Source: an archaeon
GTDB lineage: Archaea; Nanobdellota; Nanobdellia; Pacearchaeales; GW2011-AR1
Length of the DNA: 64,000 nucleotides
Assembly (NCBI GenBank): GCA_043810865.1
Contig: JBDRNS010000005.1
Location: 2,821-66,820 of the forward strand
Direction of reading: 5' to 3'
Shown here: positions 59 through 56,793 of the stretch, one piece after another
How positions within the stretch are numbered: the first letter of the stretch is position 1
Layout: each line of letters starts with the position of its first letter
The notes under the pieces: generated by a model
Told to the model about the DNA's origin: nothing
Seen by the model: the letters and a program-made list of their open reading frames with translations, nothing else
The model's database searches: none
Position numbers and translations under genes: made by a program

Positions 59-1777
59 ATGAAAACAGATTATGAGCCATTCAAAATCGGAACTGTATTC
101 AATCCCATTCCAATAAAAGTGAAGAATAATTTTCCCGTTTTAAAGTCGGTGGAGGTTTTATTCCCGAGCAGATTAAATGCGATGGCAATAGATCCGGGCA
201 GAATTGCAAGCAACAAGAATATGGTTTATTCTGCAGGAGAAATAGTTTTCTCACTTCCGATTTTTAAAAGAATTAAAGTCAATGTAATCTCTTCTAGAGA
301 TGTTGTCATATCTGAAAATTCGAGGAGAAAACCTCTTATCAGACACGCATTTTTGATAATGAAAAAAGCAATAAGTTTTGATAACGGATTGTATATCGAA
401 GTGGAAAATTCTGGAGAAGTTAAACATCAAGGGCTTGGTTCAAGCAGCAGTTTATTAGCGGGTGTTTGTGCAGCAATAAATGAAATTTACGGGTGTCCTA
501 TCAACCAAAAAGAATTATTAAAATATGTCGCCCAAAATCACGGAGAGGAAATTGAAGGAAATAATTCAGAATTAAATCCTGTGCAGTGTATTGGTGGTTC
601 AGCAGCATCGGGGCTTTATGAGGGAGGGGTTATATTGGTTCTTGGGAAGAATTTAGTTGCAAAAACCGCAAATATTCCTCAAGATTATTCAATAGTTTTA
701 GGTTTCCCAAAAGATTTTAAAGAAATTGATTCAAAAGTGGCTCTTGAAAAAGAGTTCGAAAATATAAATAATTTTATTGAATGCGGTAAAAAATATGGAG
801 AAACCAATGCTTATAATGTTTTACATAAATTTATTCCTGCGATGATTGAATCAGACATTGAGAAGATGGGAGAGGTGATATATGATTATAGGTATAATAT
901 GGGTAGTATAAAAAATTGTTCATTTCTTTATCCAAAATTAGTTCAGGTTTGCGATAAGGTATCAATTCTTAAAAAAGAGAGGTATGCTTCGATATTATCC
1001 ATCTCCTCTGTCGGGCCATTAATATTCGCGATAACTAAAAATCCAGAAAAATGCCAAGAAATTTTTGAAAAAGAAAATCTAAAAACAGAAATATTTCAAG
1101 TATACAATGGGAAATACAGAGTAGTAAACTTTCTTAGATACGAAGATGTTTTTTGGGATGAACAATCTTCTTTTTTTTCAGATAAGCTTCCCTGTAATCA
1201 TATAATCAAAATCTTAAAAAAGTTTGATAAAAGAAAAGGCAACAAGCTTTTGGATGTCGGATGTGGGGGAGGAAGAAATTTGATATCTAGACTGGGGGAA
1301 GGTTTTGATGTTTATGGGATAGATTATTCTAATTCTATGATAAAGAAAGTCCGACAAAAACTAAGCAAGCATTTTTCTTTAGAAGAGATAAAAAAAAGAA
1401 TACTCAAGAAAAATATCTTCAGTTTATCTGAAATCGACGAAAAGTTTAATGTTGTTATTGCTTCAGGAATAATTCACCAGGCTAAATCGAAAAAAGAGCT
1501 AAAGGAAATAATTTTTTTACTGGCTAATGCACTCAAAAGGGAAGGGATTTTAGTCGGCAATTTATTTACTTCAGATTATTTGGATTCTGAAATGAATTGT
1601 ATTGGTGAGAATGTTTATATTACAAAAGAAGGTTTGTATATGACCCTTGTCACAAAAGACGAATTTTTGGAAATTTGTAAGGAGAATGGACTTTATCCAA
1701 AAACTTTCCAGGAAGAAATAAAGGATGTAGGTACAGGAAAGAGAGCAATCCTCCGTTTTGAACTGGAGAAATTTTAA
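59..1777 (+). CDS. Two-domain protein: N-terminal GHMP-kinase-fold domain (beta-RFAP-synthase-like) fused to a C-terminal class I SAM-dependent methyltransferase
   Basis: N-terminal 'FPSRLNAMAIDPGRI' and 'GLGSSSSLLAGVCAA' (GHMP motif II) then 'GGSAASGL'; C-terminal 'LDVGCGGGRN' SAM-binding motif I; 572-aa ORF. Confidence 0.5.
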   Translation: MKTDYEPFKIGTVFNPIPIKVKNNFPVLKSVEVLFPSRLNAMAIDPGRIASNKNMVYSAGEIVFSLPIFKRIKVNVISSRDVVISENSRRKPLIRHAFLIMKKAISFDNGLYIEVENSGEVKHQGLGSSSSLLAGVCAAINEIYGCPINQKELLKYVAQNHGEEIEGNNSELNPVQCIGGSAASGLYEGGVILVLGKNLVAKTANIPQDYSIVLGFPKDFKEIDSKVALEKEFENINNFIECGKKYGETNAYNVLHKFIPAMIESDIEKMGEVIYDYRYNMGSIKNCSFLYPKLVQVCDKVSILKKERYASILSISSVGPLIFAITKNPEKCQEIFEKENLKTEIFQVYNGKYRVVNFLRYEDVFWDEQSSFFSDKLPCNHIIKILKKFDKRKGNKLLDVGCGGGRNLISRLGEGFDVYGIDYSNSMIKKVRQKLSKHFSLEEIKKRILKKNIFSLSEIDEKFNVVIASGIIHQAKSKKELKEIIFLLANALKREGILVGNLFTSDYLDSEMNCIGENVYITKEGLYMTLVTKDEFLEICKENGLYPKTFQEEIKDVGTGKRAILRFELEKF

Positions 1778-1894
1778 AAAATTAAAATTATAAACAATAT
1801 ATTCTTCTCCGAAACACAAGCCCGGAGAAATCGCCAAGACAAAAAAAGATGCGGAGAAAGCAGAGAAAAACACAAGTAAAATTAATTTCAGTTT

Positions 1895-2359
1895 TTATCC
1901 TGCTAAATATCTTCTTAAATCAAGATTACGCAAACCTCTTATTACATCTTCGGGGACGAAAACATCTGTTGTTTTTATTGGAGAATCTCTTCCTAATTTT
2001 ATTCTTTGTAATGAATCTTTTTTTGGAGAAGAAAACATTTTGCCGAGATCTTCAAGATAAGGAAGGGTGCTTTTTCCCGCGTGAAGAAGGAAATCAGGGG
2101 CTAGGGGAATTATAATCTGTTTTTCTGTTAAATCGCTCCAGATGTATAAATTGCCTTCCCGTACAGTTCTTATATCTTCTCTTTTTGGGATTTTATGCAA
2201 CCACCATTCCTCCCATTTTAATCTTGGATTAATTTGAACAACATTTCTCCCATTAGTATAGCTTGTTAGATAACCTATCACTAGCTCTCTTATATCTTCA
2301 GGGTTTCTTGCATAAATGTGTGGTTCCCGATTTGAGAGATCTTTTAATTTATATAACAT
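1895..2359 (-). CDS. hypothetical protein
   Basis: 154-aa ORF with no recognisable motif; coding-like composition. Confidence 0.35.
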   Translation of the reverse strand: MLYKLKDLSNREPHIYARNPEDIRELVIGYLTSYTNGRNVVQINPRLKWEEWWLHKIPKREDIRTVREGNLYIWSDLTEKQIIIPLAPDFLLHAGKSTLPYLEDLGKMFSSPKKDSLQRIKLGRDSPIKTTDVFVPEDVIRGLRNLDLRRYLAG

Positions 2360-2656
2360 GCGAAAATATTTTCTTGAAGTTATATAAGGTTTTTGTTTTG
2401 GGTGGAATTTTGATTTTTATTTGCGTTCGCCAAAGCCAAGATAAATTCTTTCAGAATTTAGTATCGGTGCTCACGATTATTGACCTAGTTCCGTTTTATA
2501 TTTTCGACAAGGAAGGAATTTCGCTAAAAAAGTTTTAGTGCAATAATTTTCTAATCAATATCTGAACGAGAGGAAGGAAATTAAAAGCGAGCCGAAGGCG
2601 AGCTAAATTAATGCCCCCAAATTTTTATAAACTTGTTCTTATGTTTTATTTTATCA

Positions 2657-2859
2657 GCCCCAATCGCATAAGGGTATTGCACAAGATTGGAAAGCAGAAC
2701 CGAGGTTCCGCACCTCCTATGAATAAGAAAAGTTCAGCAGGAACGCACCTCCTATTGGTGAAAGGGGGTTCGGCGCCCAAAGAAACTACAATAGTTTCCG
2801 AGAGAAAAACAAACATCTTGGTCCGCAAGGACATCCAGGTTCGAGTCCTGGTTGGGGCG
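2657..2859 (+). tRNA. tRNA-Ser (anticodon GGA), type II long variable arm, interrupted by an intron of about 122 nt (2693-2814)
   Basis: 7-bp acceptor GCCCCAA/TTGGGGC; D-arm GCAT-AAGGGTA-TTGC; anticodon stem CAAGA/TCTTG; loop TTGGAA|A gives anticodon GGA; variable arm GTCC-GCAA-GGAC; T-arm CCAGG-TTCGAGT-CCTGG; discriminator G; poly-T follows. Intron boundaries approximate. Confidence 0.55.
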
Positions 2860-2868
2860 TTTTTGAAA

Positions 2869-3432
2869 ATGGAAAAAGATTACAAAAAAGAATTTATTGA
2901 AATAATTAAAAATGATAATTTTTTGACTGAACTGTTAAAAATAGTCAGGGAACTTGATTTGCCTGATTGGTTTGTTGTTGCAGGAGTTGTCAGGAACAGG
3001 GTTTGGGATTTTCTGCATGGATATGGGCAAAATACCGAACTGAGAGATGTTGATGTTATTTATTTTGATAATTCCAAGTTTAATTCTGAAGAAGATAAAA
3101 GAATTGAAAAGAAACTAAGAGAAAAAAGAAATGATATAGAATGGGATGTTTTTAATCAAGCCCGAAGACATCTTAAAAATCAGAAAAGTGTAAATTCTTC
3201 TGAAGAGGCACTTTTTTATTATAGTGAGACAGCTAATTGCATTGGTGTGAGGTTAAACAAAGACGGCAGTTTTTTTGTTTGTGCTCCTTACGGTTTTGAG
3301 GACTTGATGAATTTGATAGTTAAGCCAGTTCCAGAACCTTATCAGAACATGGAGTTGTTTAATTTGAGAACAAAAGAAAAAGGATGGTTTGAAAAGTGGC
3401 CGAAATTGAAATTAATTACTTCACCACAATAA
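2869..3432 (+). CDS. nucleotidyltransferase family protein (NTP_transf_6-like)
   Basis: 'WFVVAGVVRNRVWDFLHGYG' and 'DVDVIYFD' motifs; start taken at the internal Met (MEKDYKK) because the upstream part of the ORF is the tRNA gene. Confidence 0.45.
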   Translation: MEKDYKKEFIEIIKNDNFLTELLKIVRELDLPDWFVVAGVVRNRVWDFLHGYGQNTELRDVDVIYFDNSKFNSEEDKRIEKKLREKRNDIEWDVFNQARRHLKNQKSVNSSEEALFYYSETANCIGVRLNKDGSFFVCAPYGFEDLMNLIVKPVPEPYQNMELFNLRTKEKGWFEKWPKLKLITSPQ

Positions 3433-3463
3433 TCTTTATAAAGAAGGGATATTCTCTTTTTTT

Positions 3464-3889
3464 ATGAATAGGTTAAGTGAAGTTAGATATGAAGAAGGAA
3501 TTGCTGCGGGACATTACGATCACAGAAGAAATATTGATGACCCTTTAAAATTGTTTGATGGGTTGGAAGGAACATGGCATCCCCACGGAATAATTACATT
3601 AAAGCAGGAAGGATTGGACTTGGGAAATCACCATCATGATTACGATGAACTTTATTTTTCTCCAACAGGAGGGTTTAATGTCTGGCTTGTTGATGAGAGA
3701 GAACCAAAAGATATGTTACATTTTAGGATGACTCCCGGTTCAAGATTGCTTCTTCCAGAATATGTTGCTCACAGAGTTGTTGGGGAAATTGGTTCTGTAT
3801 TGCTGACTTATGGGAACGTTCCTTTTAATTCAAATAGAATTTTAAAGAGTTCGACTGAGTCCTTGGAACTTCTTGCAGTGGGAGAATAA
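3464..3889 (+). CDS. cupin-domain protein
   Basis: 'GNHHHDYDELYF' cupin motif 1 and 'PEYVAHRV' motif 2. Confidence 0.45.
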   Translation: MNRLSEVRYEEGIAAGHYDHRRNIDDPLKLFDGLEGTWHPHGIITLKQEGLDLGNHHHDYDELYFSPTGGFNVWLVDEREPKDMLHFRMTPGSRLLLPEYVAHRVVGEIGSVLLTYGNVPFNSNRILKSSTESLELLAVGE

Positions 3890-46040: not shown

Positions 46041-49013
46041 TTAAAAATTTCTAAAAGTTGATTTATATGAATTTAACATGTGATTAAAGTTTGTGTCTAC
46101 AACTGTGTCTCCATTTTTTTCATTGACAATAAATCTGCAGTCCTTTCTTACAACACCGATTTTTGCAATGTAAGTTCCTTCCATTGCTTTTTCAAATTCA
46201 GAAACATATTCAGGATTTACTGTGACAACTAATCTTCCCTGGCTTTCTGAGAAGAGTGCGTAATCATTTCTGTTCTCTGAATTTTCCAATTCACTTAATG
46301 AAATTTCCATTCCTAATTTCCCCCCCATCGCTGTTTTTGCAAGAGCGATTCCTAATCCTCCTTTTTCAACACTTTGCGCAGAAGCGATTAATCCTCTGCT
46401 TAATGCCTGCGAGAATTTATTGTAAAGCATTCTGTTTTCTTCTGCGTTAACTACCGGAACATTATTTCCCACAAATCTTTCGCCTCTTATTTGTTCGCCC
46501 TGCATTGCAAAATATTCAGAGCCACCGAGTTCTCTTCTGTCTTTTCCTAAAACATAAACAATGTCTCCAGGCATTTTTGCATCAAGGGAAATTGCTTTTC
46601 TTACATCATCCATAACTGTAATTGAAGAAACAAGTAGCGTCGGTGGAATGGAAATTTTTACAGGATTTCCTTCTTCATCAAACCCCTTGAAATCATTGAA
46701 CATGCTGTCTTTTCCTGAAATAAAAGGAGTTTCAAATGCTACTGCAGTGTCATAGCATGCCTGAACAGCTCTTTTTAATTGCCATAATCTTTTTGCTTCA
46801 TCTGAACTGCACCAGCAGAAATTATCCAGCAAGGCAATGTTTTCTAATCTTGCACCGACGGAGACGGCATTTCTTACAGCAGTATCAATTGCGGCTGCCG
46901 CCATATTATATGTGTCAATATCTCCGTAACTTGGACATAATCCATGGGACAAAATAACTCCTTTGTTTGAATCAAGAACAGGGCGAACTATTGTTGCGTT
47001 TCCGTTTACTCTTCCTTTTCCCTGCAGTGGTTTCAGGACAGAGCCCCCCTGAACTTCGTGGTCATACTGTTGTGAAATAAATTCAGAGCTTGCAATATTT
47101 TCTCTTCCTAACATTGAGTGCAAAATTTCTGTCAGGTTTTTCGGCTGGGAAAATTCAGGTTCTTCATGAATTTGTTTTGTAAATGTTGTCTCCATAGGCC
47201 TTTGAGGCAGTCCATTGTGAAGAAAATCCATATCAAGATCCATTACTCTTTCACCTTCGTAATCAACAACACAATTTCCAGAGTCAGTAAATTCTCCAAT
47301 CACTGTTGCTTCAACCCCTCTCCTTTCCATTAAGTCCGAGAATTCATTCCATCTATTTTTTGGAACAGACAAAGTCATTCTTTCCTGTGATTCTGAAATC
47401 CAGGTTTCCCAAGGTTGTAATCCAGGATATTTGAGAGGAACTTTGCTTAAGTCAACATAACATCCTCCTGATTCTTTTGCCATTTCTGCAACAGAACATG
47501 ACAAACCTCCTGCACCATTATCTGTAATGCTGTTGTATAGTCCGAGATCTCTTGCTTCTTTTATAATCGCATCACTTAATTTTTTTTGAGTTATTGGGTC
47601 GCCGATTTGAACAGCTGTTGCAGGGCTTCCTGAGTCCATTGCTTCTGAAGAAAAAGTTGCTCCGTGTATTCCGTCTTTTCCGACTCTTCCTCCAACCATA
47701 ACCACGAGGTCTCCCGGCATTGCTCTTTTTTCGTATGAATTCCTTCCTGCGCTTTCTTTCGGCATTAAGCCCACTGTTCCGACGAAAACCAACGGCTTTC
47801 CCCTATATCTTTCATCAAAATAAGCAAAGCCCTGAGGGGTTGGGATTCCTGACTGATTTCCTCCCACATTAACACCCCTTACAACACCTTCAAGGATTCT
47901 TCTTGGGGAAAGCATTCTCTGGGTTTGATTTTCTCCTTTGTATAAAACTCTTTCATCATCGGGAAAACCAAAACAAAAACCATATACATTAATTACTGGT
48001 TTTGCCCCCAGTCCTGCACCGATTGCATCTCTGTTAACTCCGACGATTCCTGTAACAGAGCCGCCGAAAGGATCCAGAGCAGAAGGAGAGTTATGCGTTT
48101 CAACTTTGTGTGTGATATAATGTTCATTATCAAACTTAATTATCCCTGAGTTATCTGTAAAAACAGAAACACAGAAATCTTTTTCACCTTTTCTTCTTCT
48201 AATTTCTTCAGTGGCCCCTTTTATGAATGTGTTGAATAGTCCGTCGGTGAATTCGTCCATCGGGTTTGCAAAAATTGTGTGCTTACAATGCTCACTCCAT
48301 GTTTGCGCCAGAGCTTCCATTTCCAAATCTGTCGGGTTTCTTCCAAGCATTGCAAAATGATTTCTTATTGCATGTATAGAAGTTAAATCAAGAGCAAGAG
48401 GACCTCTTCGTGTTCCGTCGGGATTTGCAATTCCTTTTTTCCCGATTATTGCAAGTTCTTCGTCAGGTGCATGAAGAATGTCAACTAAATCAGCTCCTGG
48501 TTTTTCTAAAATCCTGACGCTTGGAACAATAACGTCCATTCCATCGTCGGCAGAGAACTCTGCATAACTTTTAACATGAATTCTTTGTATTAATGGATTT
48601 GCCAATGACCCTCCAACTCTTTTGGCATCTTCTTCTGTTAAATCGCCTGATAAAAAAGTTAATTGGGAAGTGTGAACAACTTGTCCGTCAAATTTTTTTC
48701 TTAATGCGTCACTAATTCCTTCTCTTGCAGTGTTTCCAACATTGTCTGTAACTCCCGGAAGAAGACCTGTTTCAACAGCGAAGCTGAATTCAGGTTTAAA
48801 CGAATTATCAACTCTTCCTTCCTGAAAAACAGGATTAGTTAACATACTTCTAACCTGTTCTAATTCTTTCCCTGTCAAATCATTTTCAACAGTGTAAACA
48901 TCAACTATTTTTACTCCTGTAATTCCAGAAAAACCAGCGGATTCAAGTTCTCTTTTTCTCGCGCTTGCTCTTGCATCAGATATTGTTCGCGCAACTCCTA
49001 TCCTGTGAGCCAT
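46041..49013 (-). CDS. purL: FGAM synthase II fused to an N-terminal PurS-like domain
   Basis: 990 aa; first about 80 aa PurS-like, then duplicated AIR-synthase-like PurL domains ('DNGAGGLS', 'GGSVTGIVG'). Confidence 0.8.
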   Translation of the reverse strand: MAHRIGVARTISDARASARKRELESAGFSGITGVKIVDVYTVENDLTGKELEQVRSMLTNPVFQEGRVDNSFKPEFSFAVETGLLPGVTDNVGNTAREGISDALRKKFDGQVVHTSQLTFLSGDLTEEDAKRVGGSLANPLIQRIHVKSYAEFSADDGMDVIVPSVRILEKPGADLVDILHAPDEELAIIGKKGIANPDGTRRGPLALDLTSIHAIRNHFAMLGRNPTDLEMEALAQTWSEHCKHTIFANPMDEFTDGLFNTFIKGATEEIRRRKGEKDFCVSVFTDNSGIIKFDNEHYITHKVETHNSPSALDPFGGSVTGIVGVNRDAIGAGLGAKPVINVYGFCFGFPDDERVLYKGENQTQRMLSPRRILEGVVRGVNVGGNQSGIPTPQGFAYFDERYRGKPLVFVGTVGLMPKESAGRNSYEKRAMPGDLVVMVGGRVGKDGIHGATFSSEAMDSGSPATAVQIGDPITQKKLSDAIIKEARDLGLYNSITDNGAGGLSCSVAEMAKESGGCYVDLSKVPLKYPGLQPWETWISESQERMTLSVPKNRWNEFSDLMERRGVEATVIGEFTDSGNCVVDYEGERVMDLDMDFLHNGLPQRPMETTFTKQIHEEPEFSQPKNLTEILHSMLGRENIASSEFISQQYDHEVQGGSVLKPLQGKGRVNGNATIVRPVLDSNKGVILSHGLCPSYGDIDTYNMAAAAIDTAVRNAVSVGARLENIALLDNFCWCSSDEAKRLWQLKRAVQACYDTAVAFETPFISGKDSMFNDFKGFDEEGNPVKISIPPTLLVSSITVMDDVRKAISLDAKMPGDIVYVLGKDRRELGGSEYFAMQGEQIRGERFVGNNVPVVNAEENRMLYNKFSQALSRGLIASAQSVEKGGLGIALAKTAMGGKLGMEISLSELENSENRNDYALFSESQGRLVVTVNPEYVSEFEKAMEGTYIAKIGVVRKDCRFIVNEKNGDTVVDTNFNHMLNSYKSTFRNF

Positions 49014-49056
49014 TTGCTAAAAATAATAATTTCTTTTTAAGAATTATTGTGATGAA

Positions 49057-49178
49057 CGCCCCGACCAGGAATCGAACCTGGATGTCCAAAAGGACCGCGA
49101 GTTCAGTGCAGTTCTTAGAAGGTGCGGAACCTCGGTTCTGCGTTCGAGTCGCGTGCAGTACCATTGTGCCATCGGGGC
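49057..49178 (-). tRNA. tRNA-Ser (anticodon CGA), type II, with about 41-nt intron (49102-49142)
   Basis: Acceptor GCCCCGA/TCGGGGC, anticodon stem CGCGA/TCGCG, loop CTCGAA|C, variable arm GTCC-TTTT-GGAC, T-arm CCAGG-TTCGATT-CCTGG, discriminator G; intron has central GCAG/CTGC helix (BHB-like). Confidence 0.6.
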
Positions 49179-49253
49179 TGAATATTTTAATAAAGGACAA
49201 TTTATAACTTTTATTACCAAAAAACTTATAAAAAACTTTACGATTGTTAATTT

Positions 49254-56632: not shown

Positions 56633-56703
56633 ATGGTCCTAGGAGGAGTCGAACCTCCCCTTCCTCGGTGTAAACGAGGTGTTCTACCGATAGACTATAG
56701 GAC
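56633..56703 (-). tRNA. tRNA-Val (anticodon TAC)
   Basis: Acceptor GGTCCTA/TAGGACC, anticodon arm CCTCG-TTTACAC-CGAGG, T-arm GGAGG-TTCGACT-CCTCC, discriminator A; 71 nt, no intron. Confidence 0.7.
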
Positions 56704-56793
56704 CTTAAAAGTAAAATTGTTTATCTGTTAAAAAGGTTTTCTGTCACCACTCTTTCCCAAAAACTTTTAAAGGGTTCTTCTCCTTGATTTATC

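Follow-up and report, generated by a model that had tools for sequence, protein, structure and literature searches.

The window, by which we mean the whole 64,000-nt stretch of DNA that was analyzed, is from a cellular archaeal genome, has 35% G+C, and encodes aIF5B, aIF2-gamma, Dph2, Kae1, GyrA/B, ArgRS, IleRS, and PurL/Q. It contains two tRNA-Ser genes, one for each of the anticodons GGA and CGA, that are predicted to be interrupted by introns (Table 1). Both genes were missed when ARAGORN was run on the window without its intron mode, the sole call then being an intronless tRNA-Val(UAC) at 56634-56704. At the gathering threshold, Rfam returned tRNA matches only, both in the window and in L022, an archaeal locus described below. 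The junction of the tRNA-Ser(CGA) intron is ambiguous by up to 3 nt (34/35 to 37/38) because GAAC is repeated.

Table 1. Predicted tRNA-Ser genes of the window, their introns, and the repeat-derived and splicing features within them.
Feature	Position	Strand	Evidence
tRNA-Ser(GGA) gene	2657-2859	+	ARAGORN intron mode; spliced cloverleaf
tRNA-Ser(GGA) 5' exon	2657-2692	+	
tRNA-Ser(GGA) intron, 122 nt, position 37/38	2693-2814	+	
24-nt module GCAGAACCGAGGTTCCGCACCTCC, canonical form, from intron base 2	2694-2717	+	Exact 22-mer match; family alignment
Second, partial direct module copy GCAGGAA-CGCACCTCCTAT, without the CCGAGGTTC hairpin half	2737-2755	+	Direct repeat and local alignment
tRNA-Ser(GGA) intron 3' end, ACAA + AC	2809-2814	+	BHB register
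tRNA-Ser(GGA) 3' exon	2815-2859	+	
tRNA-Ser(CGA) gene	49057-49178	-	ARAGORN intron mode; Rfam RF00005 tRNA model, 41.6 bits; spliced cloverleaf
tRNA-Ser(CGA) 5' exon	49143-49178	-	
tRNA-Ser(CGA) intron, 41 nt, position 37/38	49102-49142	-	
24-nt module GCAGAACCGAGGTTCCGCACCTTC, one substitution (CCTTC for CCTCC)	49118-49141	-	22-mer match; family alignment; BHB register
CUGC, 3' strand of outer helix h', pairs with GCAG at 49138-49141	49108-49111	-	RNAfold MFE; in register with family
tRNA-Ser(CGA) intron 3' end, ACUG + AA	49102-49107	-	BHB register; RNAfold
tRNA-Ser(CGA) 3' exon	49057-49101	-	

As a preliminary description of this DNA had reported, the two introns share 22 identical nucleotides. 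Within the window, exact copies of this 22-mer, GCAGAACCGAGGTTCCGCACCT, lie at two sites (2694-2715 on the plus strand and 49120-49141 on the minus strand), with no further match there at up to 3 mismatches and a chance expectation of 0.00 matches in 100 shuffles. Pairwise alignment of the two genes lengthens the identity to 26 of 27 positions, through CACCT[C/T]CTA, and the repeat begins at intron base 2 in both. Removal of nucleotides 2693-2814 and 49102-49142 turns both genes into canonical class II cloverleaves; therefore the common segment is intron, not exon. We thus give next to no credence to the idea that the similarity is due to chance or that the segment is exonic under another tRNA model, the latter being a case that the preliminary description had raised against itself; no matches are expected by chance, and the spliced sequences are canonical tRNA-Ser.

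The repeat also accounts for the shared spurious peptides GAEPRFC that the preliminary description had noticed in the ORF track. The peptide is the reverse-complement translation of the repeat (GGT GCG GAA CCT CGG TTC TGC). It is in frame with an 80-aa ORF at 48965-49207 (+) that has a TTG start, runs antisense to tRNA-Ser(CGA), and contains EGAEPRFC; this ORF is spurious. A mechanical ORF of 273 aa at 2611-3432 (+) spans tRNA-Ser(GGA), intron included, without a stop and is translated there as QNRGSAPPMNKK. Its Pfam NTP_transf_6 match begins only at residue 111, and the true start of the gene is probably the in-frame ATG at 2869-2871, 10 nt past the tRNA, the longer frame likely being an over-extension by gene callers. 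For annotation, this means that default tRNA finders miss genes of this kind and that gene callers give spurious ORFs across them.

The longer of the two introns, that of tRNA-Ser(GGA), contains a direct repeat of CGCACCTCCTAT (2709-2720 and 2744-2755), the downstream member of which lies in a partial second copy of the module with a local alignment score that was matched by 3 of 2000 shuffles. An inverted second arm in this 122-nt intron was not significant (488 of 2000 shuffles) and a repeat search found none. Rfam at E<=10 matched no family besides tRNA in this intron. A resemblance to the preQ1-I riboswitch was rejected, Rfam having given no support. We also rejected a C/D box sRNA within the introns; by sequence, the C box (RUGAUGA) is absent from both, and Rfam at E<=10 gave nothing. 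Inspection of the module by eye showed neither the tandem G-A motif of a K-turn nor a pair of C/D boxes. Pairing of the module with the D arm, as in the RNAfold centroid, or with the T loop was rejected as well, being only 5-8 bp long and not conserved in the other module-bearing tRNAs.

We looked for relatives of the module in one exact-match scan each of 185,579 species genomes, using an 18-mer from the module, and of JGI metagenomes, using a 20-mer. Except for six bacterial chance matches, all matches were on low-G+C contigs. Those from species genomes are labelled Woesearchaeota or Pacearchaeota, and the metagenome contigs are without a taxon label. Of 25 archaeal copies, 23 head a tRNA intron at 37/38, all in sense orientation. 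These counts overstate the number of independent genomes because some loci are duplicates: L007/L019/L021, L012/L020, L016/L025/L028, and L013/L024 are near-duplicate metagenome loci, and L006 and L014 are one 23,798-bp contig in two collections (JALUUW010000069.1 and Ga0256830_1000779). The intron copies begin at intron base 1-3, with the exception of one Lys-UUU copy that begins about 8 nt in. The host tRNAs are Ser(GGA, CGA), Gly(UCC, CCC), Arg(UCU), Lys(CUU, UUU), Thr(CGU, probably UGU), and Asn(GUU), amounting to 10 anticodons and six amino acids, and one MAG (CAYLOQ01) has the module in three different tRNAs. In the family alignment, positions outside the search words (G1 and CCTCC) are near-invariant and variation is free past position 24, so we set the module at 24 nt; it is often followed by TAT. 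Among orthologues of tRNA-Ser(CGA), the module is identical at 23-24 of 24 positions and the 5' exons are 65-73% identical, a comparison biased by the fact that the loci were found by exact 18-mer and 20-mer searches.

Fuzzy matching and nhmmer on 218 kb of archaeal loci revealed only two more distant copies, namely a diverged form in tRNA-Val(UAC) of L009 and a spacer variant in L040. Other introns in the same genomes are without the module. A tRNA-Gly(UCC) intron of 165 nt in L023 (5687-5922, minus strand) is built of four tandem 41-nt units (GGTTCCGCACCTCCTATTAATGGAAGTTCAGCGAACTAACA), and 41 nt is also a typical intron length. We rejected rolling-circle copying of a circular intron as the source of these units, as no circular permutation of the neighboring 42-nt intron yields them. 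Two ARAGORN intron-mode calls deserve mention as mislabelled. The "tRNA-Phe(AAA)" in L007 (7807-7917, minus strand) is a tRNA-Gly(CCC) with a module intron, and the "tRNA-Leu(CAA)" in L009 (3593-3725, plus strand) looks like a tRNA-Gly(GCC) with an unrelated intron.

The distribution across tRNAs bears on the origin of the serine pair. The exons of tRNA-Ser(GGA) and tRNA-Ser(CGA) are clearly paralogous, with near-identical T and variable arms, and the shared segment could for this pair alone stem from paralogy, that is, from one ancestral intron carried through a tRNA-Ser duplication that was followed by an anticodon change. As a sufficient explanation this is contradicted by the module at the head of class I introns (Gly, Arg, Lys, Thr, and Asn), which are not derivable from tRNA-Ser. 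The anticodon stems of the two genes also differ at 3 of 5 base pairs versus 1 of 24 bases in the module, and we regard paralogy alone as a very improbable account. Nor is the sharing a matter of serine isoacceptors or of a local duplication, the latter a case that the preliminary description had raised against itself; the module heads introns for six amino acids and has copies outside tRNAs and in viruses. The two introns are homologous, as that description had proposed, and a transposition-like spread, which it had also considered, is the best explanation.

A common plan of bulge-helix-bulge (BHB) introns emerged from 17 distinct intron-bearing genes. After a single first base, the intron has GCAG, which supplies the 5' side of the outer helix h', then the remaining module sequence and a variable linker; next come YUGC or UUUUGC, supplying the 3' side of h', a tetranucleotide complementary to nt 32-35, and two final bases. 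The central 4-bp helix is thus formed by nt 32-35 of the anticodon loop and intron positions n-5 to n-2, with the splice sites in the two flanking 3-nt bulges. All four central pairs are present in the genes with anticodons UCC, CUU, UUU, and GUU and in one of the two UCU genes, and elsewhere mostly three of four. At the level of the family the strict hBHBh' motif is seen, Gly(UCC) having 4/4 central pairs and a 6-bp h' and Lys(CUU) 4/4 and 3 bp. In a test on 15 of the genes (two near-duplicates were dropped), nt 32-35 and positions n-5 to n-2 were paired in 50 of 60 cells compared to 40.0 expected with permuted partners (0 of 20000 permutations reached 50), and nt 34-35 alone in 21 of 30 compared to 13.4 (5 of 20000), figures that overstate independence in that the set includes orthologues. 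The BHB register thus holds throughout the family, with the central helix co-adapted. The tails are purine-rich (GAAG, GGAG, AGAG, and AGAA) and, in most of the host tRNAs, pair with anticodon loops of the form C/U-U-Y-Y; in the remaining hosts they are only partly adapted, as would be expected of recent transfers. RNAfold predicts a GAGGU/ACCUC hairpin in every member of the family.

In tRNA-Ser(CGA), the first four bases of the module, GCAG, make up the 5' strand of h'. The preliminary description had taken the GCAG/CTGC pairing for the central helix of a plausible BHB; in the family register it is the outer helix, and the central helix uses nt 32-35 and n-5 to n-2. The gene has a 4-bp h', and the claim was optimistic given the central helix, where ACUG makes only 1 of 4 pairs with nt 32-35 (CUCG), the worst of the family. 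A 3-bp central helix is possible if the register is shifted by one base. In tRNA-Ser(GGA), ACAA pairs with nt 32-34 (UUG) to give 3 of 4 central pairs and no outer helix h' forms in register. By these predictions the two genes of the window are the weakest BHB members of the family, with a relaxed motif alone possible for tRNA-Ser(CGA). Splicing of the tRNA-Ser(CGA) intron would not be assured given its poor central helix, and splicing of both would depend on how relaxed the endonuclease of this clade is.

We then compared orthologous loci. Six Leu/Arg(CCU)/Gly(UCC)-SecF loci were obtained through SecF homologues (65-90% identity) and hence selected without reference to the repeat. In these, tRNA-Gly(UCC) is intronless in five and has a 16-nt intron in one, and the module is absent from the 35 kb that they comprise. 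The 16-nt intron has only the 3' UUUGUGAAGAA in common with the module-bearing introns. Overall, tRNA-Gly(UCC) has the module at three loci, the 16-nt intron at one, and no intron at five, and one of the relatives without the module has a SecF that is 90% identical to that of the module-bearing L027. Similarly, tRNA-Val(UAC) is intronless in the window, and its counterpart in L009 has an intron of 64 nt that contains a diverged module. From the polymorphism of Gly(UCC) and Val(UAC) we conclude that gain or loss of the module-bearing intron takes place on short time scales and that these tRNA genes can dispense with it.

Two of the loci used in these comparisons have further peculiarities. L070, whose SecF is 90% identical to that of L027, has a 297-aa LAGLIDADG-family ORF (1529-2422, plus strand) downstream of tRNA-Arg(CCU) and ahead of its tRNA-Gly(UCC), which is intronless. 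In L009, a second copy of the intron and 3' half of tRNA-Val(UAC) follows some 970 bp further downstream, preceded by 5' sequence of unrelated origin (2443-2581 and 3409-3547, both plus strand). Either part of the gene was duplicated or an integrating element left an att-like repeat.

Two archaeal copies lie outside tRNA genes, in the S19-L22-S3-L29-SUI1-S17 operon of L022. They were rejected as BHB introns, having neither YUGC nor a central-helix partner downstream. The same operon was taken from relatives through SUI1 homologues (L041, and L042/43 and L044/45 with SUI1 88-96% identical). In the SUI1-S17 spacer, the 24-mer is found only in L022, and five relatives (L041, L042/43, and L044/45) are without it. 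The second copy lies within an N-terminal extension of L22, which reads MEEKIEDN-QNRGSAPP-MNKEK in L022 versus MEEKIEDKKKIEK in L042, an in-frame 24-nt insertion that is lacking from the relatives covering the site (L042/43 and L044). Thus, insertion polymorphism is found at sites both within and outside tRNA genes. At the same spot in the SUI1-S17 spacer, L040 (4289-4366, plus strand) has another hairpin variant in inverted orientation, GCGGAACCTCCTGCGGGTTCTTGC, and next to it CCAGTTCCAGCTTCCCAACAGGAAGTTG. Palindromic units of giant viruses likewise contain the string TTCCAGCTTC.

The archaeal copies have one arm only; a second, inverted arm was not found in the window or at any of the archaeal loci. 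No consistent target-site duplication flanks them, and GAAC flanks only the tRNA-Ser(CGA) intron of the window. No transposase domain was found among the ORFs scanned against Pfam, a minority of those in the fetched loci.

The module is also present in IMG/VR contigs. One of these, L029, is from a polinton-like virus; it encodes a Pox_A32 ATPase and an HNH endonuclease and gives a weak, sub-threshold VLTF3 match (E 0.008). Its copy, CAGAACCGAGGTTCCGCACCTCCTTTT, adds 27 nt in frame to the gene of a membrane protein of 72 aa, and four homologues of this protein and the syntenic locus L030 lack the insertion. No target-site duplication was seen when L029 was compared to the empty site of L030. 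Where the ORF ends, the inserted module pairs with a downstream GGTGCGGAA sequence in a predicted hairpin some 16 bp long (2160-2290, minus strand; RNAfold z = -2.9). This hairpin resembles a terminator, in keeping with the "hairpin rule" of giant viruses.

Other viral contigs with the repeat carry NCLDV major capsid protein, RFC, a TBP-like protein, and an mRNA cap methyltransferase, and are from giant viruses. Here, the variants GCAGAACCTACGGTTCCGCACCTCCCT and GCAGAACCAAGGTTCCGCACCTCCTT are multicopy and have the form GCAGAACC(TAC/AA)GGTTCCGCACCTCC. We found 52 good copies with nhmmer in 214 kb of giant-virus loci, including seven facing pairs that bound units of 76-486 nt as inverted ends; one of these units, positions 2737-2884 of L035, is a 148-nt palindrome. 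Most of the variation falls in the loop of 2-3 nt that separates GAACC from GGTTC, and a compensatory stem change (GAAAC...GTTTC) is seen in one copy. With the stem kept, the loop variable, and a compensatory change, the GAACC..GGTTC hairpin suggested in the preliminary description is supported. GGTAG precedes nine viral copies and no archaeal copy. Rfam gave only sub-threshold miRNA-precursor matches on the giant-virus unit, a reading that we rejected as such matches mean merely a long hairpin. At the giant-virus loci (L035-L039 and L046-L069), the repeat often adjoins TTCAATTTTA, the reverse complement of AAAATTGA, a motif known as an early promoter in Mimiviridae, and it adjoins GTAGGGGCAAGCCCCTAC-type palindromes as well. 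The units are mosaics of several small hairpin modules.

The 3' half of the module resembles the 3' end of the small-subunit rRNA, where helix 45 is followed by the anti-Shine-Dalgarno tail ending in GAACCUGCGGUUGGAUCACCUCCUUA. The module ends in CACCUCCU after GAACC..GGUU and matches 17-18 of 23 positions, counted by eye, of the bacterial or archaeal 16S 3' end. A rare viral variant present in two copies, GAACCTGCGGTT, has 12 consecutive matches. The module might mimic the rRNA and serve as a decoy or competitor for factors or mRNAs. We consider this very improbable. The likeness was seen post hoc, and the palindrome GGAACC/GGTTCC by itself imposes part of it. In structure, the predicted hairpin is no equivalent of helix 45, and the copies are far closer to one another (24/25) than to rRNA. 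Furthermore, viruses of eukaryotes have no use for an anti-Shine-Dalgarno sequence.

We also weighed whether selection maintains the module as a functional RNA element, either in the pre-tRNA or in the circular intron after excision, its spread and invariance then being the outcome of function and not of selfish mobility. Such an element might bind a protein as a hairpin, clamp the fold so that the BHB is presented, or act as a regulatory RNA. The sharp boundary of conservation at position 24, against variable flanking intron bases and exons, would fit selection, as would the single orientation of all 23 tRNA copies and the register at intron base 1-3 in all but one. So would the use of GCAG as the outer BHB helix and the GAGGU/ACCUC hairpin predicted throughout the family, in which the C-to-U change of the tRNA-Ser(CGA) copy of the window retains a G-U pair. 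Yet the tRNA-Gly(UCC) orthologues of six relatives work without the module, five of them without any intron, and other introns of the same genomes do without it. The element is also found in a coding region, in an operon spacer, and as a DNA palindrome in viruses of eukaryotes. No Rfam family matches it even at E<=10, and the estimate of its conservation is biased by the exact-match searches. We therefore judge a functional element to be unlikely, if less so than the alternatives above.

The explanation that we favor, and hold to be probable but far from certain, is that a mobile, REP- or MITE-like hairpin repeat seeded or colonized a spreading family of BHB introns of about 40 nt in Woesearchaeota/Pacearchaeota (DPANN). 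The module would be one copy of a repeat that is mobile as DNA, a short GC-rich hairpin similar in type to REP sequences or the ends of MITEs, and we infer that it spread by DNA transposition. In the transcript, its GCAG would pair with YUGC near the 3' end of the intron to form the outer helix h', and the next four intron bases would form the central helix with nt 32-35 of the anticodon loop. The archaeal splicing endonuclease would then cut at the two splice sites, one in each bulge beside this helix. What remains of the module, folded as the GAACC/GGUUC or alternatively the GAGGU/ACCUC hairpin, would be an apical passenger. In compact archaeal genomes, the repeat may survive mainly where it is spliced out, as these introns presumably are. 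The two serine introns of the window would have been gained by such spread and not inherited from a common tRNA-Ser ancestor. Some observations count against a mobile repeat. For the archaeal copies, neither a second inverted arm nor a target-site duplication nor, among the scanned ORFs, a transposase came to light. The location of 23 of 25 archaeal copies in tRNA introns, in one orientation and a near-constant register, is far from random insertion and calls for strong selection, targeting, or movement of whole introns. The high identity of the module compared to the divergent 5' exons of tRNA-Ser(CGA) could reflect selection for an RNA function. Finally, there is no obvious route by which a near-identical 24-mer would come to be in both DPANN archaea and viruses of eukaryotes. 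Taken as a whole, the interpretation in the preliminary description is partly supported.

More tentatively, and with more doubt than belief, we suggest that this is an archaeal counterpart of introners, in which a short hairpin DNA repeat, near-identical in DPANN archaea and in giant or polinton-like viruses of eukaryotes, creates BHB introns de novo. The repeat would land in tRNA anticodon loops with its own outer helix (GCAG...YUGC), and its generic purine-rich tail would pair with a C/U-U-Y-Y anticodon loop. If true, it would be the first candidate donor element for the gain of archaeal tRNA introns, and it would imply either horizontal transfer of a repeat across domains or an unrecognized ecological link between the archaea and the hosts of giant viruses. 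One module can be traced in four settings, namely tRNA introns, the empty and filled sites of a ribosomal-protein operon, an insertion in a virus gene, and palindromes of giant viruses. This makes the gain of archaeal tRNA introns directly testable.

Several known systems resemble parts of this picture. Eukaryotic introner elements are mobile DNA repeats that create or populate introns, with ends that supply what is needed for splicing. Unlike these, the introns described here would be removed from tRNA by protein-only BHB endonuclease and ligase, not by the spliceosome, and their creation de novo by the repeat would be the step in common. REP/RAYT and other IS200/IS605-derived elements have an imperfect palindrome after a conserved tetranucleotide (GTAG) and come with a Y1/HUH transposase gene. 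Our repeat has a conserved stem, a variable loop, and one compensatory variant, with GGTAG before nine of the viral copies and before no archaeal copy. Palindromes that are short, GC-rich, non-coding, and multicopy are also the hallmark of MITEs, REP sequences, and Rickettsia palindromic elements, which show insertion polymorphism and are tolerated in frame in variable regions of proteins, and MITEs common to viruses and cells have been reported. The repeat is MITE-like in being multicopy and polymorphic for insertion and in having terminal inverted repeats that bound units at giant-virus loci (for MITEs in general, see PMC11602168). It differs from MITEs, REP sequences, and Rickettsia elements in that the archaeal copies are solo units of 24-27 nt with one arm and no target-site duplication and are overwhelmingly in tRNA introns.

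Among archaeal introns, that of tRNA-Trp carries a C/D box sRNA (mentioned in PMC12558985). The module is comparable as a conserved sequence within a 37/38 BHB intron but has no C (RUGAUGA)/D (CUGA) box pair and no Rfam match, and it is not tied to one tRNA. Our searches of the literature on tRNA introns in Woesearchaeota or DPANN returned nothing on such a repeat, and a search with the module sequence gave unrelated primer matches only. The closest precedent is in Thermoproteales, where very similar BHB introns in different isoacceptor tRNA genes led to the inference that introns were gained by transposition (Fujishima et al. 2010, as summarized in PMC4090602). In that summary, the BHB requirement defines the permitted places of insertion, and the mechanism of transposition is described as unknown (PMC4090602). 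As in Thermoproteales, near-identical intron sequence is found here in tRNAs of unrelated identity, with presence/absence polymorphism among orthologues. The differences are that the clade is DPANN, all copies in tRNAs are at the canonical 37/38 position, and only a 24-nt 5' module is conserved. The module is also found outside tRNAs and in viruses and thus offers a candidate donor, none being mentioned for Thermoproteales in PMC4090602. We class the feature as a family of transposed tRNA introns in which, in this case, a mobile core can be recognized, and its distribution across domains is surprising.
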